From the IMG/VR virus record IMGVR_UViG_3300032092_000043, positions 1 to 53,844 of that record: a DNA stretch of 53,844 bases; one strand, written 5' to 3'. Origin of the DNA: a virus. Taxonomy: Duplodnaviria; Caudoviricetes. The position numbers were made by a program, and so were the translations under genes. This document shows, one piece after another, positions 129 to 11,245 of this stretch. Positions within the stretch are counted from its first letter, which is position 1. Every line of letters begins with the position of its first letter. Under the pieces are notes generated by a model. It did no database searches. It was given only the letters and a program-made list of their open reading frames with translations, and was not told the origin of the DNA.

Positions 129-1043
129 ATGGCAGCACCAATGCGCAGTACGGACTTTAGAAGCATCGTTGAACCAATAATGAACGAATGCTTCGATGGA
201 GTCTATGATCAACGTACCGACGAATGGTCACGGGTTTTCCGTGAGCAGGACGGTATTCCCCGCAACTACCACGAAGAACCAGTCCTTTATGGATTTGGAG
301 CCGCACCTCAACTGCCTGACGGAACTCCTGTTTCGTATCAGCAGGGTGGTGTTCTCTTCTTGCAACGCTATGTCTATAACGTGTTTGGCTTGGCCTTCGC
401 GTTGACCAAAGTGTTGGTTGAAGACGGCGACCACATCCGCATCGGTCAGGTCTACGCTCGCCACTTGGCTCAGTCTCTCATCGAGACAAAAGAGACCTTG
501 TGCGCAAACGTCTTGAATCGCGCCTTCAACAGCGCGTTTCCCGGCGGCGACGGCGTATCCCTGATCAACACGGCTCACCCCATCGTAAACGGTACTTTCA
601 GCAACCAGTTGACCACTGCGGCCAACCTGTCCCAGACTTCTCTGGAGCAGATGCTGATTCAAATCCGTCAAGCTGTGGACAACAACGGCAAGAAGATCCG
701 CCTTGTGCCCCGCCAATTGGTGGTGGCCCCCGGCAACGTCTTCCAAGCCGAAGTTCTGCTCAAGAGCGTCCTGCGCTCTGGTACAGCAAACAACGACCTG
801 AACCCTGTCAAGTCTATCGGCTTGCTGGACGAAGGCGCTGCTGTTATCAGCCGCTTGACCAGCCCAACGGCGTTCTTTGTTCAGACCGACGCCCCAGAAG
901 GCATGAAGCTCATGATGCGTCGCAAGCTCGAGAAAACCATGGAAGGTGATTTCGAGACTGACTCTATGCGCTACAAGGCCACCGAGCGTTACATCCCCGG
1001 GTTCACCGACCCGCGTGCAATGTACGGCACACCCGGCATGTAA
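129..1043 (+). CDS. Major capsid protein (HK97 fold, Mu gpT-like)
   Basis: 304 aa, AAGGAG RBS, follows scaffold/cement genes, followed by strong terminator; motifs GGDGVSL..TAHP and MEGDFETDSMRYKATERY typical of this MCP family. Confidence 0.88.
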   Translation: MAAPMRSTDFRSIVEPIMNECFDGVYDQRTDEWSRVFREQDGIPRNYHEEPVLYGFGAAPQLPDGTPVSYQQGGVLFLQRYVYNVFGLAFALTKVLVEDGDHIRIGQVYARHLAQSLIETKETLCANVLNRAFNSAFPGGDGVSLINTAHPIVNGTFSNQLTTAANLSQTSLEQMLIQIRQAVDNNGKKIRLVPRQLVVAPGNVFQAEVLLKSVLRSGTANNDLNPVKSIGLLDEGAAVISRLTSPTAFFVQTDAPEGMKLMMRRKLEKTMEGDFETDSMRYKATERYIPGFTDPRAMYGTPGM

Positions 1044-1115: not shown

Positions 1116-2093
1116 ATGCCTCAATTTTCAGATGATCTCTTTCTGGGTTCCGCCCTTACCGTTCAAGGTATGGACGCCTACCCTGCTGTTTCAACTTTTA
1201 CTGGCTCAATTGCTACCACCACACTGACAGTCACCGCGATGCTTTCAGGTGACCCAATTTTTGTTGGTATGTTTATTGACAGCTCAACGTCTCTTACCAA
1301 TGGAACTTTTATTTCCGCTTTTGGTACAGGCACAGGTGGTGTAGGAACTTACACAGTAAACAACTCACAAACTGTAGCAAGCGCAACCATCATTGGTTCG
1401 GGTAATGCTTTGTTGTCAAACCCATCCCCAATGAGCGTAGGTGTTGGCCCTCTGGGTCGCATTTATGTTTGGGACGCTGTGCCGCAAGCCAAGCTGACGA
1501 ACAACATTGTTGCCGCTGTTATCACAACTGCCACCACGCTCACGCTGGCCGCAGGTGCTGGTGTTACATCCGCCACAATTCAAGGCGGCGCAACAGGCTT
1601 GCAACTTGACTGCCCTCGTGCGGTTTCTACAACCACAGGTGCTGGTACTCCGACTTCTGTCAACATTACTGTTTCTGGCTACGACTACTACGGTCAAGCC
1701 ATGAGCGAAGTAATTGCAACAGGAACAGTGGCATCAACAACTGTCAGCGGTAAAAAAGCCTTCTACCAAATTGCCAGCGTTGTCTCTTCTGGCGCAAGTG
1801 TGGTGACTGTTGCGGTGGGTACGACCGACATCTTGGGTGCGCCATTGCGCATCACTGATGCTGGGTACGTTACTCGCGCAGGCTGGAACAACACCTTAGC
1901 CGAAGATGCGGGCACTTTTGTTGCCGCTGCTACGCTGACGGCTACCACCACAACTGGCGATGTAAGGGGTACTTATCTGCCCTCATCGGCGGCGGATGGT
2001 ATCAAACGTCTCGTGATGGGAATCGCCCTGCCAGCAATTGCGGTAGGCCCAAATGCAACCCGTGTTGGCGCTCTCGGCGTCACACAAGCATAA
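1116..2093 (+). CDS. Virion structural/decoration protein (T/A/G-rich, beta-rich)
   Basis: AAGGAG RBS before ATG 1116; position right after MCP; composition. Confidence 0.6.
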   Translation: MPQFSDDLFLGSALTVQGMDAYPAVSTFTGSIATTTLTVTAMLSGDPIFVGMFIDSSTSLTNGTFISAFGTGTGGVGTYTVNNSQTVASATIIGSGNALLSNPSPMSVGVGPLGRIYVWDAVPQAKLTNNIVAAVITTATTLTLAAGAGVTSATIQGGATGLQLDCPRAVSTTTGAGTPTSVNITVSGYDYYGQAMSEVIATGTVASTTVSGKKAFYQIASVVSSGASVVTVAVGTTDILGAPLRITDAGYVTRAGWNNTLAEDAGTFVAAATLTATTTTGDVRGTYLPSSAADGIKRLVMGIALPAIAVGPNATRVGALGVTQA

Positions 2094-2103
2094 GGAGAAC
2101 GAC

Positions 2104-3417
2104 ATGGGTCAATTTAAACCAATGGTCAAAATGGAGACCACTGAGCCTTCAGTTGAACTGAAGCTCAAAAAAGGCGGCAAAGTGGCCAAAATGGTCAAAA
2201 AGGCTGACGGTGGCATGATGGGTTCGCCCATGAGCGCTGCTGGCGCTATGCCCCCTGCAATGCCTGCCCGTGGCGGCATGCCAATGGCTGGCTCACCAAT
2301 GAAGCCTTCGCTGGCCATGCGTCGTCGCGCCATGAAGGGCATGCCCGCTGGTGCTGGCCCTGCTGGTCCAATTGGCGGTGCAGCTTCAATGCAGACCTCA
2401 ATGCCTATGGCCCCTCCCACCATGAAAAAAGGCGGCAAGGCCGACATGGGCCAAGACAAGGCCATGATCAAAAAGGCCTTCAAGCAGCACGATATGCAAG
2501 AGCACAAGGGCGGCAAAGGCACTTCGCTCAAGCTCAAGCACGGTGGCAAGATGGCCGCTGGCGGTGGGATGCACATGATGCCTGACGGCAAAATGATGAA
2601 GAACTCTGCCATGAAGAGCGGCGGCAAGATGACCAAGGGCGGCATGGCTTGCGCAACTGGCGGCGTAGTCAACGGCCAAGGCGGCTTTGCTACTGGCGGT
2701 GTCGTTAAGGGCCAAGGCGGCTACGCCACTGGTGGCGTTACCAAGTCAAACGGTGGCGGCTACAAAGAAGGCGGCATGACCATGGTCGAAAAGGGCGGGA
2801 AGATGGTTCCTGACTTTGCGGCTGATGGCAAGGGCAAAATGAAAAAAGGCGGCAAGATCAAAGGCATGATGGGCGGCGGAATGATGGACGAAGGCATGAT
2901 GGGTGACGCCATGTACAAAAAAGGCGGTTCCACAAAAAAAGCCTACGCGGCGGGCGGGACTGTTAATTCAGGCCGTCCCGTCGCGATGCCCCAAGGCGCT
3001 AAAAAGCCATCACAGCCCGTAAGAACCAACCTTGTTGTTGGCACTTTCAAAAAGGGTGGCAAGGTCACCCCTGCTGAAGGTAATTTGATGAAGGCATTTG
3101 GGTCTGAGAACAAGACTGCTATGAAGCAGGCAAAGGCTCAATCCAACGATGTCTACAGCAAGTACCAGAAGATGAAAGATGGTGGTTCTCCAACTCCAGA
3201 TGAGCGTTTCTTTGACAAAAACAAAGAAGACCCAAAATCTGCAAGCGACAAAGCAAGTCGTGAGTTGGAAGATGCGATGAACCCCTTGAGTATGGTGAAG
3301 GAACTGGCTGGAAAGGCCAAGAAATACTTCATGCCCAAGGCTGACAGTGTGACCAAGACTAAGGAGTCTGTAACGGTTACACCAGCGGGTAAAAAGCGCG
3401 GCGGAATGGCTTGTTAA
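2104..3417 (+). CDS. Low-complexity K/M/G-rich protein with many xxKGG/xAxGG repeats; probable capsid-internal protein
   Basis: AAGGAG RBS before ATG 2104; repeated MKKGG, YATGG, FATGG, YKEGG; ends KRGGMAC. Confidence 0.75.
   Translation: MGQFKPMVKMETTEPSVELKLKKGGKVAKMVKKADGGMMGSPMSAAGAMPPAMPARGGMPMAGSPMKPSLAMRRRAMKGMPAGAGPAGPIGGAASMQTSMPMAPPTMKKGGKADMGQDKAMIKKAFKQHDMQEHKGGKGTSLKLKHGGKMAAGGGMHMMPDGKMMKNSAMKSGGKMTKGGMACATGGVVNGQGGFATGGVVKGQGGYATGGVTKSNGGGYKEGGMTMVEKGGKMVPDFAADGKGKMKKGGKIKGMMGGGMMDEGMMGDAMYKKGGSTKKAYAAGGTVNSGRPVAMPQGAKKPSQPVRTNLVVGTFKKGGKVTPAEGNLMKAFGSENKTAMKQAKAQSNDVYSKYQKMKDGGSPTPDERFFDKNKEDPKSASDKASRELEDAMNPLSMVKELAGKAKKYFMPKADSVTKTKESVTVTPAGKKRGGMAC
2921..2985 (+). other. 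Putative programmed -1 ribosomal frameshift signal
   Basis: In-frame A_AAA_AAA (2934-2940), 5-nt spacer, GC-rich stem 2946-2957/2973-2985; -1 frame reads SLRGGRDC-TAA. Confidence 0.7.
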
Positions 3418-3422
3418 AAACG

Positions 3423-3448
3423 AGTGGGGGCTTCGGCCCCTGCTTTTT
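3423..3448 (+). terminator. Rho-independent terminator
   Basis: GGGGC-TTCG-GCCCC hairpin with T-tract. Confidence 0.88.
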
Positions 3449-3462
3449 ATTAAGGGAACAAA

Positions 3463-4549: not shown

Positions 4550-4804
4550 ATGGCAAAAAAGACTCCCTCTCTTGCTATTGGTCGTGGTGAAAAGTTGCCT
4601 GCTTCTAAGGGGGCAGGGTTGACGGCTAAAGGTCGAGCCAAATATAACGCGGCAACAGGTAGCAATTTGAAAGCACCTCAGCCTCAAGGTGGCGCACGCA
4701 AGGATTCTTTTTGCGCTCGTATGAGCGGTGTGCCGGGGCCGATGAAAGACGAAAAAGGCAAGCCAACCCGTAAGGCGGCGGCGCTTGCGCGTTGGAAGTG
4801 CTGA
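4550..4804 (+). CDS. Small basic protein ending in WKC
   Basis: 84 aa; SFCARM...ARWKC pattern common in phage head-region genes. Confidence 0.65.
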   Translation: MAKKTPSLAIGRGEKLPASKGAGLTAKGRAKYNAATGSNLKAPQPQGGARKDSFCARMSGVPGPMKDEKGKPTRKAAALARWKC

Positions 4805-4805
4805 C

Positions 4806-5867
4806 ATGTCATATTCTGGTACTACAGGCACAACCGTTGTAACGGTCCAAACGCTGATTGATCACGGTGCTCGTCGCTGCGGTAAGTTGGCAGAAGAGCT
4901 GACCTCGGAGCAGGTCCTGAGTGCCCGCGAGTCGTTGTTTTTCCTCCTGTCCAACCTGATCAACATTGGCATTCAGTATTGGGCTATCAGCAAGAAGGTC
5001 TACGGCTTCACGGCAGACAAAGCAACGTACCTGCTGCCCCTTGGCGGCAACGACGTGCTCAATGCGTTGTACCGTTATATGAACCGCCCTGACGGCAGCT
5101 ACACATCATCCGCAGGCGGCACAGTGGCCAATCTGTACGATGGTGATGTAGACACGGTATGCACTCAAACCTCTGCAAATGGAAATTTTGCTATCAACTT
5201 TGGCCCGTCCAACCCCATTTTTATTGGCTCAATTGGGTTCCTGCCTGCCTCCAGCGGCACTAAATCATTCATCCTCGAATACTCGCTTGACAACGTGACT
5301 TGGGCAACCTTGGTTGATCTTGGGTCCATCGCCGTGGTCGATAACGAGTGGGTTTGGACCGACATTGCCAACGGCCAGACCGTGCCGTACTACCGCATCC
5401 GCGCCTATAGTGGGACCACCCTGAGCTTGCGAGAATTGTATTTTGGCAACAACAGCACAGAGATCACCATGTCGCGCCTAAACCGCGATGACTACACCAA
5501 CCTACCCAACAAGAACTTCACAGCCAATCAGCCGTTCCAGTTTTGGTTCAATCGCACGATTCCCCAGAGCGAGATCGTGCTTTGGCCAACGCCGCAAGAC
5601 GCCTTTTATCAAATGACCATTTGGTACTCACGCCAGATCATGGACGTGGGTGACCTGTATGGCGAGCTAGAGGTCCCTCAGCGCTGGTACGAGGCTGTGG
5701 TGATGATGTTGTCTCATAGGATGAGCCTTGAGCTGCCCGGGGTGGACGTTACGCGCACCCAGTACCTTGAAGGTCAAGCTGACAAATACCTTGCCATGGC
5801 CGAAGAGGAAGAGCGCGACAAGTCGCCCATCTACTTTGCTCCAAACATCTCCGTTTACACGAGGTGA
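4806..5867 (+). CDS. Head-tail connector/adaptor-like protein with inserted beta-sandwich
   Basis: Helical N- and C-terminal segments (ARESLFFLL, VPQRWYEAVV) flank an FILEYSLDNVTW...YYRIR module resembling F5/8-type domains. Confidence 0.55.
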   Translation: MSYSGTTGTTVVTVQTLIDHGARRCGKLAEELTSEQVLSARESLFFLLSNLINIGIQYWAISKKVYGFTADKATYLLPLGGNDVLNALYRYMNRPDGSYTSSAGGTVANLYDGDVDTVCTQTSANGNFAINFGPSNPIFIGSIGFLPASSGTKSFILEYSLDNVTWATLVDLGSIAVVDNEWVWTDIANGQTVPYYRIRAYSGTTLSLRELYFGNNSTEITMSRLNRDDYTNLPNKNFTANQPFQFWFNRTIPQSEIVLWPTPQDAFYQMTIWYSRQIMDVGDLYGELEVPQRWYEAVVMMLSHRMSLELPGVDVTRTQYLEGQADKYLAMAEEEERDKSPIYFAPNISVYTR

Positions 5868-6233: not shown

Positions 6234-8437
6234 TGTCAGCACAAGTAACCATACTCCAACTGCCAGCCGCAGGTGCTATCACAGGCACTGAGGCGGTTCC
6301 TATTGTTCAAAATGGCGTCACGGTGCAGACGACCACGGCGGCGATCTCCGCATCTCCGTCGCAACCCTACACCTACCTGACCGTCACCCAAACACCTCAG
6401 TTAGCCAACAGCCGCTACGTTGGCGCGACCAACGGCTTGACGATCACTGACGGTGGTGCTCAGGGCGTGTTCAATATAACGACCACAGGCGCTCTTTTGT
6501 CGTTAGTGAACTCTGGTACTGGGTTTCAGGTAAAAACGTCTTCTACGGCCATTACAGGCCGCTCTATTGCCGTTTCTGGCGTTGGGTTGTCAATTTCCAA
6601 TGGAAGCGGCGTTTCTGGCGACCCTACAATCACTTTAGCTGGCCAAGTCCTGAATCTGGCTAACCTGAGCGCCAACGGCCTGATGGTGATCACCTCGGCT
6701 GGTGCGTTGTCGGCCACGTCAATCCTGAACGTGGTTGACCAGACCGCTGTGTTCAATGCGGACGGCACGACTGGCAACCCGACCATTGGTTTGGCGTCAA
6801 ACCCCATCATCCCCGGCACTGGGTCAATCTTTATCCCCGTGGGAACCACTGGTCAGAGGTCTTCTGGTGTAAACGGGCAGATTCGTTACAACAGCACCGA
6901 CGGAGCCTACGAGGGCTATTCTGCGGGCGCATGGCGTCAATTCTCGCTGTCTGGTGGCGTCACCTTGGTCAACACTGGAACGGGCCTCACAGGCGGTCCT
7001 ATTACGGGCGCGGGCACGATTTCCATTGACGTCACCGCCGTGACCGCTGGCTCTTATGGGTCTTCAACTCAGGTAGGAACTTTCACTGTCAACGCCCAAG
7101 GTCAACTGACTGCGGCTGCCAACGTGACAATCACCCCTGCCGCCATTGGCGCAGTGTCGTCTGTATCTGGAACCGCAAACGAAATAACCGCAACGGGAAC
7201 CACCACAGTCGTTATTTCGCTGCCTGCTGCTTTGACCTTTACTGGCAAGACGGTGACGGGTGGCACGTTCTTACTGCCAATCATTTCCTCGATATCAAAT
7301 AGCGGCACGATCACCATTCCGTCAGGAACCGACACGCTGGTTGCCCGCAACACTACCGACACGTTGACCAACAAGTCAATCAGTGGCACAGGCAACACGC
7401 TAACCAACATTGGCAATGCTTCGCTGACCAACAGCACGATCTCTGGCGTTTCGCTTGGGTCAAACCTGTTCAGCTTGACGATTGGTACTGGCCTTACTGG
7501 CACGAGCTACAACGGCTCTGCTGCGGTCACTGTGGCAATTGATTCAACCGTGGTGACCTTGACAGGCACGCAGACGCTGACAAACAAAACCATCAGCGGC
7601 GCAAGCAACACGCTTTCCAATATTGGTAACGCCTCGCTGACAAACAGCTCTGTGACCGTTGGAACGACTGCAATTTCGCTTGGCAGCAGCTCGCTGACGC
7701 TTGGTGGCCTGACTTCGGTTGCGGTCACTCAGGACCCAACGACGGCCCTTCAGCTTGCCACCAAGCAGTATGTGGACACCACCGTTGCGGTCGGTTTGAC
7801 TTTTCACCAGCCTGTGCAGGCGGCAACAACCACGACGCTTGCTACGACGACAGGTGGCACGGTCACTTACAACAACGGCACGGCTGGCGTCGGGGCAACC
7901 CTCACATTCTCCGTGGCGCTGACTGTCCTTGACGGTTACACGCTGGCCAACACAAACCGCGTTCTGATCAAGGACGAGGCCAACCAAGCTCACAACGGCG
8001 TCTATACATGGGCCACTGGTGGCACGGTATTGACCCGCGCAACGGATGCTGACACTTACGGCAGCGGAACCAACCAATTTAGCCAGAACGACTACTTCTT
8101 TGTCCAGAACGGAACTGTCAACAAAGGCACTTCTTATGTGGTGACAACTGCTGGAGTTATCACGTTTGGCACAACGGCAATCACGTTTGCTGAATTTAGC
8201 TCGTCTCAGGTTTACACAGGTACATCGCCAATCGTTATTACTGGCACGGTCATCTCTTTGACCACCGTTCCTGTTAACCTTGGTGGTACAAATCTGACTA
8301 GCTACACCATTGGCGATACGCTTTATGCAAGTGGCGCAACAACATTGTCTAAACTACCACTTGGTACGCAGGGTTTTGTGCTGACAGCGGGCGCAACTGG
8401 GCCTGTGTGGTCTGGCATCTCGGGCGGGACTTTCTAA
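6233..8437 (+). CDS. Tail fibre-like protein (proximal)
   Basis: T/G/S-rich; TLTNKTI and NIGNASLTNS repeats; ATKQYVD motif; ends GGTF. Confidence 0.75.
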   Translation: MSAQVTILQLPAAGAITGTEAVPIVQNGVTVQTTTAAISASPSQPYTYLTVTQTPQLANSRYVGATNGLTITDGGAQGVFNITTTGALLSLVNSGTGFQVKTSSTAITGRSIAVSGVGLSISNGSGVSGDPTITLAGQVLNLANLSANGLMVITSAGALSATSILNVVDQTAVFNADGTTGNPTIGLASNPIIPGTGSIFIPVGTTGQRSSGVNGQIRYNSTDGAYEGYSAGAWRQFSLSGGVTLVNTGTGLTGGPITGAGTISIDVTAVTAGSYGSSTQVGTFTVNAQGQLTAAANVTITPAAIGAVSSVSGTANEITATGTTTVVISLPAALTFTGKTVTGGTFLLPIISSISNSGTITIPSGTDTLVARNTTDTLTNKSISGTGNTLTNIGNASLTNSTISGVSLGSNLFSLTIGTGLTGTSYNGSAAVTVAIDSTVVTLTGTQTLTNKTISGASNTLSNIGNASLTNSSVTVGTTAISLGSSSLTLGGLTSVAVTQDPTTALQLATKQYVDTTVAVGLTFHQPVQAATTTTLATTTGGTVTYNNGTAGVGATLTFSVALTVLDGYTLANTNRVLIKDEANQAHNGVYTWATGGTVLTRATDADTYGSGTNQFSQNDYFFVQNGTVNKGTSYVVTTAGVITFGTTAITFAEFSSSQVYTGTSPIVITGTVISLTTVPVNLGGTNLTSYTIGDTLYASGATTLSKLPLGTQGFVLTAGATGPVWSGISGGTF

Positions 8438-8446
8438 GGAAAAATT

Positions 8447-11245
8447 ATGGCTGCAACAAACTTTACACCGATTCAACTTTACTTCTCAACGACTGCATCT
8501 GCCGTACCTCTGGCGGCAAATCTTGCGCAAGGTGAATTGGCAATCAACATCACCGACGGAAAGCTGTATTACGAGGACAACGGCGGCGTTGTGCAGGTAA
8601 TTGCAACCAAAGGTGCTGGCACGATTGGTGGATCAACAACGCAGATTCAGTACAACAACGCAGGCGCGTTGGCTGGTAATGCTGCAATGGTGTTCAACAA
8701 CTCAACGAACGTCACCACGCTGACCACGCTGAACCTCACCAATGCCCTTGGAGCCATCTACGGCGGCACTGCGCAGTCCACTTATACCCAAGGTGACATC
8801 CTCTACTCCTCGGCCACGAACACGCTGGCCAAGCTTGGTATTGGCGTGGTCAACTACATCCTGACGTCAACTGGAACGGTCCCTCAGTGGGTTGCACCTT
8901 CAAGCATCACCGTCAACACAGCGACCAACCTTGCTGGTGGCCTTGCTGGATCTGTTCCTTACCAGTCGGCTCTCGACACGACGACGTTCTTAGCTATTGG
9001 AGCTGCCAATCGGGTCATGACCTCTACTGGTACTGCCCCGCAGTGGGTGACGTCCCTGACGGGCCTCACAGGCGTTTCCAGCTCTAGCATTACCAATACC
9101 AGCCTGACCTCTGGCCGCGTCGTTGTGAGCACCACCGCTGGCCTTCAGGCTGACGATGCTGACCTGACCTTTGACGGCACAACTTTGTCGGCTGGCGGCT
9201 TCTCAACGGTCGGCCTGAGCACTTTGGTCAAAACCGTCAAGATTGGTGACAGCAACTTTAACGGCGTGGCCGTGTTTGCTGCTGCTACGCCTGCCAAGCT
9301 GTATATGGGTACGGGTACTGTGACCGACGTCACCTCGGCAATCAGCGCAACCAACGCAATTGGTGCAATCGCCTCCTTGGGCATTACCCCAATCGCTGCG
9401 ACCAACACCAGCGTCACCTACACCGACGCAGCCACTTTGTACATTGCAGGCGCTCCAAGCGCTGGCACGAACGTCACTTTGACCAACCCATACGCTTTGT
9501 ATGTGGCTTCTGGTAACGCCTACTTTGGCGGCACAGTGACTGCTGGAACCGTCAACCTGACCACGCTTGACCTGACCAACCTTGAAGTGACCAACATCAA
9601 AGCCAAGGACGGTACGGCTTCGATCACTCTGGCCGACACCACTGGTATTGCCACATTCAGCGGTGCTACCGTATTTACGGCTGGCACAGCGTTATTGCCC
9701 GCCATCACCACAACTGGCGATACAAACACTGGTATTTGGTTTCCTGCGGCTGACACTATTGCCTTTACAGAAGGTGGTGTGGAGTCTATGCGCATAGATT
9801 CGTCAGGCAATCTAGGCTTGGGTGTTACTCCTAGTGCTTGGAGTAGCGCAAGCAGACCCGCATTGCAATTAACAAATGGTGCGGCTTTGTTTACTCGAAC
9901 TGGAAGCACGTTCTTAAGTCAAAACTTTTTTTACAATGCTGGTGACACAGGCTCGTATATTGCCAATGGTTTTGCAACGGTTTATGTTCAAACCAGCGGT
10001 CAACACCAATGGTACAACGCCCCATCAGGCACGGCAAATAACACAGCGGCTTTAACGCAAGCAATGACGCTTGATGCCAGCGGTCGGCTACTTGTTGGCA
10101 CTACCTCTGGTTCTGGCGCAACAATGTTTACTGTCAATCAACCGACTGCAAGCACTGATGCAAAAACGATTGTCTCTGTTACTACTGGAACAAATGCGGC
10201 ATTTACAGCCTTTGTCAACACTACAGTAACCACAGTAGGAACTGAAAACAGTTCTGGTGGAAGCCTTGTTTCTGGTTCATCTGCTTACTCAACTGTTATT
10301 GCAAACAATGGTGCATACCCAATTTCGTTTGGCACAAACAACACAGAACGTGCCCGTATCGACTCCAGCGGCAATGTGGGGATTGGTACAAATAATCCTG
10401 CGGAAAAACTAAGTGTTGCAGGCGCTATACGAGTACATACAGCTTCTAGTGCAGGATTTACTTTAGATGCAAAAGGTGGGTTGTTTGATTTTGTTCCATC
10501 AAGCAATACTGTCCGAGTTGGGTATGTCCCGGGAACATCTGGTGTAAACACAGGTATTTTAACTTTTTTAGTTGGCAGTGGCAGTACAGCGGCTACTATT
10601 GACTCAAGCGGTAACTTTATTGTTGGTACTGGCAATGAAAACGGTCAATTTACTGTTAGAAATGCGTCTGCAAACAAGGCCACCGCTGCAATTATTGCAT
10701 CAAATACGTCTGGGCCAAACTATGCAATTGACGCCGTTAGTCATGCCACTGCCGCCAACACACCATCTTTAATTCGTGGATATTCTGGTAGCGCATCACC
10801 AACACAAGTTTTTAACTTAAGCGGTTTTGGAAACATCACCCAGTTTGGTGGACAGATTTTTTTCCCCGCAACTCAATCAGCATCAACTGATGCAAACTGT
10901 TTGGATGACTATGAGGAGGGGACTTGGACACCTGTATTTTCGGCTGGTGGCATAACGGGAACAAGTATCACATACAGCGGGACATACACAAAAATTGGTA
11001 GAGTTGTGTCTGTAAGTTTTCGTGCAGAGTCAGCATCAGGCAATATAAACGTAAGTTCTTATGCAACATTTTCTGGACTGCCATTTACTGTTGGGGTTAA
11101 GGGATGTGGCTCCGCTACCACAGAAGATATTGATGTTTTTGCTAGTCTTGGATTTGCCGAAACATCAGGCACATCTTTGGGATTGTCTAAATGCGGAAAC
11201 GGAACAACTGCCGATTTGAATGCAATGGTCACATTTTTTGTCTAA
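8447..11245 (+). CDS. Tail fibre / receptor-binding protein (distal)
   Basis: N-terminal GELAINITDGKLY; repeated RIDSSGNxGIGT modules; C-terminal LDDYEEGTWTP domain. Confidence 0.8.
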   Translation: MAATNFTPIQLYFSTTASAVPLAANLAQGELAINITDGKLYYEDNGGVVQVIATKGAGTIGGSTTQIQYNNAGALAGNAAMVFNNSTNVTTLTTLNLTNALGAIYGGTAQSTYTQGDILYSSATNTLAKLGIGVVNYILTSTGTVPQWVAPSSITVNTATNLAGGLAGSVPYQSALDTTTFLAIGAANRVMTSTGTAPQWVTSLTGLTGVSSSSITNTSLTSGRVVVSTTAGLQADDADLTFDGTTLSAGGFSTVGLSTLVKTVKIGDSNFNGVAVFAAATPAKLYMGTGTVTDVTSAISATNAIGAIASLGITPIAATNTSVTYTDAATLYIAGAPSAGTNVTLTNPYALYVASGNAYFGGTVTAGTVNLTTLDLTNLEVTNIKAKDGTASITLADTTGIATFSGATVFTAGTALLPAITTTGDTNTGIWFPAADTIAFTEGGVESMRIDSSGNLGLGVTPSAWSSASRPALQLTNGAALFTRTGSTFLSQNFFYNAGDTGSYIANGFATVYVQTSGQHQWYNAPSGTANNTAALTQAMTLDASGRLLVGTTSGSGATMFTVNQPTASTDAKTIVSVTTGTNAAFTAFVNTTVTTVGTENSSGGSLVSGSSAYSTVIANNGAYPISFGTNNTERARIDSSGNVGIGTNNPAEKLSVAGAIRVHTASSAGFTLDAKGGLFDFVPSSNTVRVGYVPGTSGVNTGILTFLVGSGSTAATIDSSGNFIVGTGNENGQFTVRNASANKATAAIIASNTSGPNYAIDAVSHATAANTPSLIRGYSGSASPTQVFNLSGFGNITQFGGQIFFPATQSASTDANCLDDYEEGTWTPVFSAGGITGTSITYSGTYTKIGRVVSVSFRAESASGNINVSSYATFSGLPFTVGVKGCGSATTEDIDVFASLGFAETSGTSLGLSKCGNGTTADLNAMVTFFV

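Follow-up and report, generated by a model that had tools for sequence, protein, structure and literature searches.

A probable dnaX-type programmed −1 frameshift signal in a head-module gene family of uncultured freshwater phages

The window analysed here is a stretch of 53,844 nucleotides (nt), IMG/VR record IMGVR_UViG_3300032092_000043, from an uncultured freshwater phage (Caudoviricetes). It reads as a tailed-phage genome of ~54 kb, with terS, terL, a portal gene, a GroES-like gene and tail fibre genes. In its head module, as the second gene past the major capsid gene and ahead of an SU10-type adaptor-like gene, lies a gene for a lysine- and glycine-rich protein, and this gene carries a slippery heptamer of adenines in the register of its Lys-Lys codons, followed closely by a GC-rich hairpin and by a stop codon in the −1 frame (Table 1). 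The anatomy of this signal, its conservation, its register and the covariation of its stem are seen across hundreds of relatives. From these sequence comparisons we consider it very probable that the gene contains a functional programmed −1 ribosomal frameshift of the type known from Escherichia coli dnaX.

The elements of the signal stand exactly where the first-pass annotation of the window had placed them: the in-register heptamer, the AGGCGG upstream of it, the short spacer and the bulged GC-rich stem with its CTG/CAG extension are all found in the sequence. The two protein ends that it had described, SLRGGRDC in the −1 frame and KKRGGMAC in the 0 frame, are equally exact, and both are closed by TGT TAA (the 0-frame stop codon occupying 3415-3417). 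The −1 stop falls inside the apical loop of the hairpin. The predicted short isoform would consist of 279 shared residues plus the 8 residues of the extension, that is 287 amino acids (aa), and would be without the last 158 residues of the long one. RNAfold gives −30.5 kcal/mol for positions 2934-3000, compared to a shuffle mean of −23.1 (standard deviation 3.0; z −2.44), a value equalled by 3 of 200 shuffles; for the hairpin alone (2941-2990) it gives −27.4 kcal/mol (z −2.93), with again 3 of 200 shuffles as good. Taken by itself, the signal in the window is suggestive rather than compelling and no more than moderately unusual, given how often the gene has Lys-Lys codons rich in A and Gly codons rich in GC. 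No tRNA genes were found in the phage, and hence none that might modulate Lys decoding.

Table 1. Coordinates of the frameshift signal, of the gene that carries it and of flanking features in the window
Feature	Coordinates	Strand	Details
Slippery heptamer A_AAA_AAA	2934..2940	+	codons ACA AAA AAA GCC, X_XXY_YYZ register
Spacer GCCTA	2941..2945	+	5 nt
Stimulatory hairpin (predicted)	2946..2985	+	5' arm 2946-2957, 3' arm 2973-2985, U2976 bulged
Apical helix CUG/CAG	2960-2962/2969-2971		loop 2963-2968
−1 extension	2940..2966	+	AGC CTA CGC GGC GGG CGG GAC TGT (SLRGGRDC), then TAA 2964-2966
Shine-Dalgarno-like AGGCGG	2922..2927	+	Gly-Gly codons GGC GGT, 6 nt 5' of heptamer
Gene with the signal, 0 frame (long isoform)	2104..3417	+	437 aa, ends ...KKRGGMAC, then TAA
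Shine-Dalgarno TAAGGAG	2091..2097	+	6 nt from ATG 2104; overlaps TAA stop of upstream 334-aa gene
Terminator-like hairpin with T-tract	3422..3452	+	directly 3' of gene
Major capsid gene	129-1043		
SU10-type adaptor-like gene	4785-5867		

Relatives of the gene were collected as DNA from IMG/VR via three different queries (80 + 154 loci), with the addition of MW202545.1 from GenBank and of 11 loci from bacterial genome or metagenome-assembled genome (MAG) assemblies; none of the peptide patterns used for the first set covered the frameshift site. The main comparison comprises 236 sources, i.e. 235 related loci and the window, which after dereplication leave 167 distinct 121-nt site regions. Changes were counted on a FastTree tree of 145 proteins, and all such counts are minimum numbers. 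The family appears to be large and, one GenBank record of an uncultured phage aside, unannotated: 4599 of 8000 scored database proteins match at E ≤ 0.001, a figure that low-complexity composition may inflate, and none of the 120 family proteins listed has a Pfam domain. A tblastn search of GenBank phages with the whole protein gave no match, probably due to the low-complexity filter, and a search with its 30-residue N-terminus matched MW202545.1 only, an uncultured phage in which the homologue is annotated as a single 'hypothetical protein'. Sequence of relatives was also found in contigs of four RNA libraries, a kind of library in which DNA can be present, so that we do not take this as a sign of expression.

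At the homologous Lys-Lys pair, A_AAA_AAA or A_AAA_AAG stands in register in 233 of the 236 sources. Among the remaining three, one contig (L228) ends 5' of the site and one distant homologue is taken up below. The third, L202, has Gly-Lys in place of Lys-Lys and reads CTG GGA AAA, which yields another canonical heptamer, G_GGA_AAA, in the same register; there is no run of six A's at this locus, and it keeps both a −1 stop, reached after 6 codons, and a stem whose first base lies 6 nt 3' of the heptamer (−59.8 kcal/mol over 130 nt). The 167 distinct sites are split between A_AAA_AAA (85) and A_AAA_AAG (82). The codon that precedes the heptamer always ends in A (GCA 71, ACA 43, TCA 31, CCA 10, TTA 8, GTA 3, CTA 1), and it changes at least 36 times on the tree, the heptamer type changing at least 18 times. 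As a control, the third base is A in 1105 of 6278 Thr, Ala and Pro codons elsewhere (68 distinct genes), and an in-register heptamer is present at only 15 of the 543 other x-Lys-Lys sites of the same genes. Look-alike sites of the form KK-x-x-GG are slippery in 0 of 54 distinct cases, C AAG AAG being the commonest sequence; they correspond mostly to the N-terminal KGGKVAKKADGGMM (KKADGGMM, positions 2164-2190 in the window), where ordinary Lys codons, mostly AAG AAG, are found. Synonymous diversity, which averages 0.43 over the gene, drops to 0.23 across the site. Nowhere in the gene is it lower, excepting the first ~25 codons of the stop-to-stop frame, a stretch that begins in the region of upstream overlap and ribosome binding and extends into the gene's first codons.

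The loci from bacterial assemblies provide an independent set. Eight of these 11 loci, those in which the region is intact (L237-L244, 30-57% identity; 30-62% for all 11), show the full cassette, with the heptamer, a short −1 frame and a stem from 5-6 nt downstream. As for the others, the site could not be located in L245, the contig of L247 ends right after an A AAA ATG variant, and L246 has broken frames with the peptide context of the site present. In L246, as in L054, the frames are broken in GGCATGATG-type repeats 5' of the site, probably through assembly or sequencing errors in repetitive DNA. A separate observation concerns eight loci of the main set (L165, L170, L173, L174, L178, L183, L191, and L198), which have a second in-register A_AAA_AAG further downstream. 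It lies in a repeated ...GG-x-x-x-KK-F-D/S/E-G-G... module and is followed by a −1 stop after 1-2 codons ('V', 'VF', or 'VC'); this second heptamer may be a duplicated copy of the cassette.

The hairpin shows covariation at positions where the protein does not change. In the first set (56 distinct sequences) standard pairs fill 83% of cells, a share that falls to 40-52% if the partners are displaced by 1-3 columns; on each of five pairing measures all 500 column shuffles stayed short of the observed value, and RNAalifold recovers the core of the stem independently. The clearest example is the pairing between the third bases of an Ala GCN codon in the 5' arm and a Val GTN codon in the 3' arm, both synonymous: we found G:C in 54 sequences, C:G in 40, T:A in 23 and G:T in 2, with no unpaired combination among 119 sequences and at least 20 switches of pair type on the tree. 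These 119 are the sequences in which both arms were recognised by a pattern leaving the two test positions free, the other 26 of the 145 using other arms. Other clades have GACGG/CCGTC or GAGGG/CCCTC arms at the same distance. The MW202545-like clade, which appears weak in a 60-nt window, has the same arms (5' ...A-T-G-G, 3' ...R-P-V-A) placed around an insert of ~60 nt that forms an inner helix. A perfect complement of at least 8 nt is present in 29 of the 32 distinct sequences of this clade, with the arms GCCACGGG/CCCGTGGC, GCTACGGG/CCCGTAGC or GCCACAGG/CCTGTGGC; in 27 of the 29 it lies ~72 nt downstream (around the insert), and in two it closes ~40 nt downstream. Over the 167 sites, the minimum free energy (MFE) of the 60 nt past the site averages −23.9 kcal/mol, compared to −15.1 for other windows of the same genes (median percentile 0.033, with 56% of sites at or under the 5th percentile), and the first paired base lies 3-6 nt past the heptamer in 162 of them. 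Once relatives are compared, the cassette goes far beyond what chance would be expected to produce.

A nearby stop closes the −1 frame in 167 of 167 sites, after an extension of 1 (4 sites), 2 (29), 6 (29), 8 (101) or 9 (4) codons. The extension ends in Cys at 126 sites and otherwise in Gly (17), Arg (17), Val (4) or Ser (3), the Cys-stop being built as TGT TAA, TGT TGA, TGC TGA, TGC TAA or TGC TAG. The two-codon version, 'VC', occurs in clades whose 0 frame reads KK-F/Y-A-D/E/R, and it is all that three sub-clades have. Among the sites with an 8-codon extension, 99 of 101 have T as the base completing TGT, compared to 35% T at comparable positions elsewhere, and yet this base stands third in a 0-frame codon that varies (ACT 48, AGT 28, CTT 11, GTT 6, GCT 5, TCT 1). 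The MW202545-like clade has no −1 Cys and ends in ALRHGR, ALRHRG, SLRHGG or SLCHGG. As to the 0 frame, a terminal Cys is present in 139 of 161 complete genes. Cross-tabulation of the two terminal Cys gives 115/24/10/12 (Fisher p = 0.0004), but across nine phylogenetically independent pairs the −1 Cys goes along with the 0-frame Cys in 0.5, moves the opposite way in 1.0 and is unchanged in 7.5. The raw association disappears under independent contrasts, and we reject it as evidence of linked evolution of the two cysteines: both are common in these sequences, with no evidence of a functional link between them.

These data bear on what the first-pass annotation had made of the two protein ends. 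It had seen the same RGGxxC C-terminus on both isoforms and had expected the −1 frame of homologues to close with GGxxC and a stop. The nearby stop is universal and a terminal Cys is frequent, but the shared motif holds only in part: a whole clade is without the Cys, the two cysteines show no linked change, and the −1 'RGG' is in fact R-[G/D/H/Y]-G-G, whose second residue tracks the covarying bases of the 5' arm and is therefore a by-product of the RNA and not a protein motif. It had also likened LRGG to the C-terminus of ubiquitin, hinting at cleavage or conjugation. We found nothing in favour of this idea, as LRGG is followed by RDC, relatives have LRDGG, LRHGG, LRYGG or just VC, and the protein shows neither a folded domain (predicted local distance difference test, pLDDT, 44) nor a Pfam match. 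A different function can be imagined, namely that both isoforms of a disordered polycation need a C-terminal Cys as their working end (for a disulfide, a metal or a covalent capsid anchor), although we regard this as a speculative and rather unlikely reading. If it were true, the cassette would have evolved to rebuild a Cys-stop in the −1 frame through different codon contexts, the protein motifs A-[TA]-G-G and [RKQ]-P-V-A would be shaped by the RNA stem that they encode, and the phage could adjust how much it makes of a tethered 'filler' form relative to one that has a helical C-terminal domain as well.

The role of the AGGCGG upstream of the heptamer, pointed out at first pass as a Shine-Dalgarno (SD)-like element, is less clear. 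The element is there, yet it consists of two adjacent Gly codons, an arrangement found about twenty times in the gene, and it should pair poorly with the anti-SD because a C replaces the A of GGAGG. A function as stimulator is doubtful in the window. Among the 167 relatives, GGAGG is found at the site in 23%, compared to 2% of 3152 other Gly-Gly pairs, a difference that concerns a conserved pair in kin sequences; the pair lies 6 nt from the heptamer in 121 sites and 9 nt in 46. Judging from these sequences some lineages may use an SD-like stimulator. Such an upstream element is not obligatory for dnaX/IS-type −1 frameshift signals.

The mechanism that we propose is the following. A ribosome with tRNA-Lys on AAA 2935-2937 and on AAA 2938-2940 would meet the hairpin 5 nt downstream, and a fraction of ribosomes would slip back one base on A_AAA_AAA. 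Slipped ribosomes would read the eight −1 codons and stop at the UAA in the hairpin loop, releasing the 287-aa form, while unslipped ribosomes would go on to make the 437-aa protein. We favour tandem tRNA-Lys slippage of the dnaX kind because of the layout, the register and the A_AAA_AAG alternative. In the review of Atkins et al. (2016; PMC5009743), A_AAA_AAG is the dnaX heptamer and is described as far more liable to shifting than A_AAA_AAA in E. coli, and about half of bacteria are said to decode both Lys codons with one tRNA. Half of our sites (82/167) carry the shiftier version. We infer that ribosomes do slip here, that each of the two products has a use and that the proportion between them is of consequence. 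The proposal of the first-pass annotation, a dnaX/IS-type −1 signal giving a short and a long isoform, has thereby gained strong comparative support from the register, the covariation and the near −1 stop: the A-run that it expected to be conserved among homologues is A_AAA_AAR in all but three sources, one of which has G_GGA_AAA instead, and in the stem that it expected to covary the synonymous Ala/Val positions are paired in all 119 sequences scored for them.

Some observations weigh against this interpretation. The A_AAA_AAA of the window itself is, according to the same review, much less shifty than A_AAA_AAG in E. coli (PMC5009743), though the host here may differ. A distant His-rich homologue, L227, reads GCC AAG AAG and has no cassette at all. 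The site lies within a conserved protein segment, KKAYAAGGTV..RPVAMPQG, so that part of the nucleotide conservation is at the protein level, which is why we argue from synonymous positions. Kinship among the relatives also means that raw counts overstate independence and that the counts on the tree are fairer. One regularity, Val GTT in 101 of 101 sites of the 8-codon class, is circular, as this class is defined by its stop. The upstream GGCGG is weak and only 6 nt away from the heptamer. Finally, the frameshifted product itself is a prediction from sequence.

Another explanation is that the A-run and the hairpin are kept for some other purpose at the RNA level (for instance ribosome pausing that lets assembly proceed during translation, the stability or processing of the mRNA, or a local translational control), any frameshifting being an unused side effect. 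The hairpin is indeed the best-supported element, the product of the shift is a prediction, and the −1 peptide is short, with a sequence mostly dictated by the stem. A pausing hairpin, however, needs no heptamer whose exact register is maintained while the codon before it changes at least 36 times, and the replacement by G_GGA_AAA in L202 is left unexplained. Besides, selection would act against an unused shifty site in a gene that is presumably expressed at a high level, and the T of the −1 Cys codon is kept (99/101) even where a C would pair better in the inner helix. We therefore find this explanation improbable. Slippage could also take place during transcription, with RNA polymerase adding or dropping an A in the run and the truncated protein coming from edited mRNA. 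Homopolymeric A runs can trigger polymerase slippage, and the window has seven A's; but transcriptional slippage sites have as a rule at least 9 identical bases, and neither the A7 of the window nor the A6G of 82 of the 167 relatives attains that length. Since in half of the sites the run stops at six A's and a G comes next, and L202 has G GGA AAA, such slippage is unlikely, and a hairpin 5-6 nt downstream is the layout of a ribosomal signal. There is no indel at 2934-2940 in the contigs that bridge the site in three RNA libraries (X19 record 4, X20 record 13, X24 record 28), a weak point, as rare variants are dropped from contigs and DNA may be present, which we do not use against slippage. 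Overall, we give an origin in transcription a very low probability, lower than that of another RNA-level purpose.

The least credible alternative to a programmed frameshift is that chance, or a constraint on protein or composition, makes Lys-Lys and Gly-Gly codons mimic the cassette in a gene rich in both residues. The gene does have many AAAAAA runs and GC-rich Gly codons, and the hairpin taken in the window alone reaches a z of just −2.4 to −2.9. Against this stand the internal controls, with 15/543 and 0/54 as opposed to 167/167 at the site, the covariation at synonymous third positions and the minimum of synonymous diversity, which leave next to no room for coincidence.

The protein encoded by the gene has 437 residues (45.0 kDa) and an isoelectric point (pI) of 10.1, and contains 78 Gly, 77 Lys+Arg and 50 Met, together with many [hydrophobic]-x-x-G-G modules. 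The longest open reading frame (ORF) at the locus spans 2053-3417, yet the true start is ATG 2104 and not ATG 2053, because TAAGGAG precedes it and relatives all begin with MGQFKPMVKM, the N-terminus MGQFKPM being invariant among them. Another in-frame ATG, at 2986-2988, stands immediately 3' of the 3' arm of the hairpin and encodes the Met of the invariant MPQG motif; it is a conceivable candidate for an internal start of the C-terminal part. The protein matched no Pfam or PHROG family, and a features search of the ESM Atlas returned only unnamed viral clusters, with scores ≤0.89. AlphaFold2 (AF2), run on a 14-row alignment, gives a mean pLDDT of 44.4 and nearly no secondary structure before residue 320; long helices are predicted only at residues 323-352 and 382-409. 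The only predicted helices lie in the part that is proper to the long isoform, as does the conserved ...SVTKTKESVTVTP..KKRGGxxC end. To judge by composition and position alone, this is probably an internal protein of the head, or a cargo protein, that is abundant and packed together with the DNA. The long form could bring an anchoring or assembly domain, the short form acting as filler.

The capsid gene, the 334-aa gene and the K/G-rich gene may form one highly expressed unit, and a terminator-like hairpin similar to that of the window follows the homologue in MW202545.1. Judged by the capsid protein, the closest cultured phages are Caulobacter phages RW, RLK, KcrB and GB2A (76.6% identity). 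Phage RW has unrelated genes after its capsid gene, the comparison being limited to that position: where the window has the 334-aa gene and then the K/G-rich gene, RW (L236) has an unrelated Cys-rich 501-aa gene at 7088-8593. As regards the host, 7 of the 11 bacterial-assembly records are titled as Burkholderiaceae, Burkholderiales or Betaproteobacteria MAGs, which is a weak hint at the host, phage contigs being often mis-binned. The head module of the window contains a second small basic ORF with a Cys end (4550-4804, + strand, ...ALARWKC), which matches the C-terminal ends of several PHROG families of unknown function. Such a Cys end is found in only 3 of 178 + strand stop-to-stop frames of at least 60 aa, two of the three being in the head module.

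The signal resembles that of E. coli dnaX (tau/gamma) in its heptamer class, A_AAA_AAR, in its simple GC-rich hairpin 5-6 nt downstream, and in a −1 stop reached almost at once, so that the predicted product is truncated at its C-terminus and lacks the distal domain or domains. It differs in its gene family, which has no relation to dnaX and encodes a basic, disordered protein of the phage head module, and in that the heptamer of the window ends in A and not in G. In dnaX the SD-like element lies ~10 nt upstream and the transframe tail of gamma is a single residue, whereas here the SD-like element is weak and 6 nt away, and the tail has 8 residues and usually ends in Cys. Like gene 10 of phage T7 (10A/10B) and the major head protein of Lactobacillus phage A2, the locus would combine a −1 frameshift in a highly expressed head-module gene with two related products from one mRNA, and a terminator follows the gene in T7 as it does here; in those phages, however, the site lies near the 3' end and extends the protein, while here it lies two-thirds along the gene of a non-capsid protein and would truncate it. 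With lambda G/GT it would share a conserved −1 slip in a morphogenesis gene and a ratio of two products, and the lambda heptamer, G_GGA_AAG, is close to the G_GGA_AAA of L202. There is no homology between the two systems, and the gene studied here follows that of the capsid protein, far from a place between the genes for tail tube and tape measure, and would yield a truncated product, not an extended one. Finally, its position near the capsid gene, its pI and its predicted disorder recall the polycationic disordered internal head proteins, with the difference that no homology to them is shown and that no capsid-targeting sequence was found here.

As the first-pass annotation had remarked, this is not a usual place for a phage frameshift, lying as it does between the capsid and adaptor-like genes with a −1 frame that closes after 8 codons. 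Because 2397 of the 2476 annotated phage frameshifts counted in the SEA-PHAGES figures of PMC10885494 are tail chaperones, a locus in the head module is atypical. A full-text literature search, which did not extend to the PRFect supplementary category tables, found no frameshift in this protein family. What we describe is a known type of recoding signal, with a textbook mechanism, in a new and atypical locus.

The finding would add a well-conserved recoding site in a module other than that of the tail chaperones. For annotation, it implies that the treatment of such genes as one hypothetical protein, as in MW202545.1, misses a probable second product. The family, which is large and uncharacterised and occurs in uncultured phages of fresh water (Burkholderiales MAGs include some of their contigs as binned), also offers a natural data set on the evolution of frameshift signals, since it includes A_AAA_AAA, A_AAA_AAG and G_GGA_AAA, loops from 15 nt to 60 nt closed by the same arms, and at least 20 compensatory switches. 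Two forms that differ by one helical domain would, moreover, give a handle on the function of polycationic head proteins.

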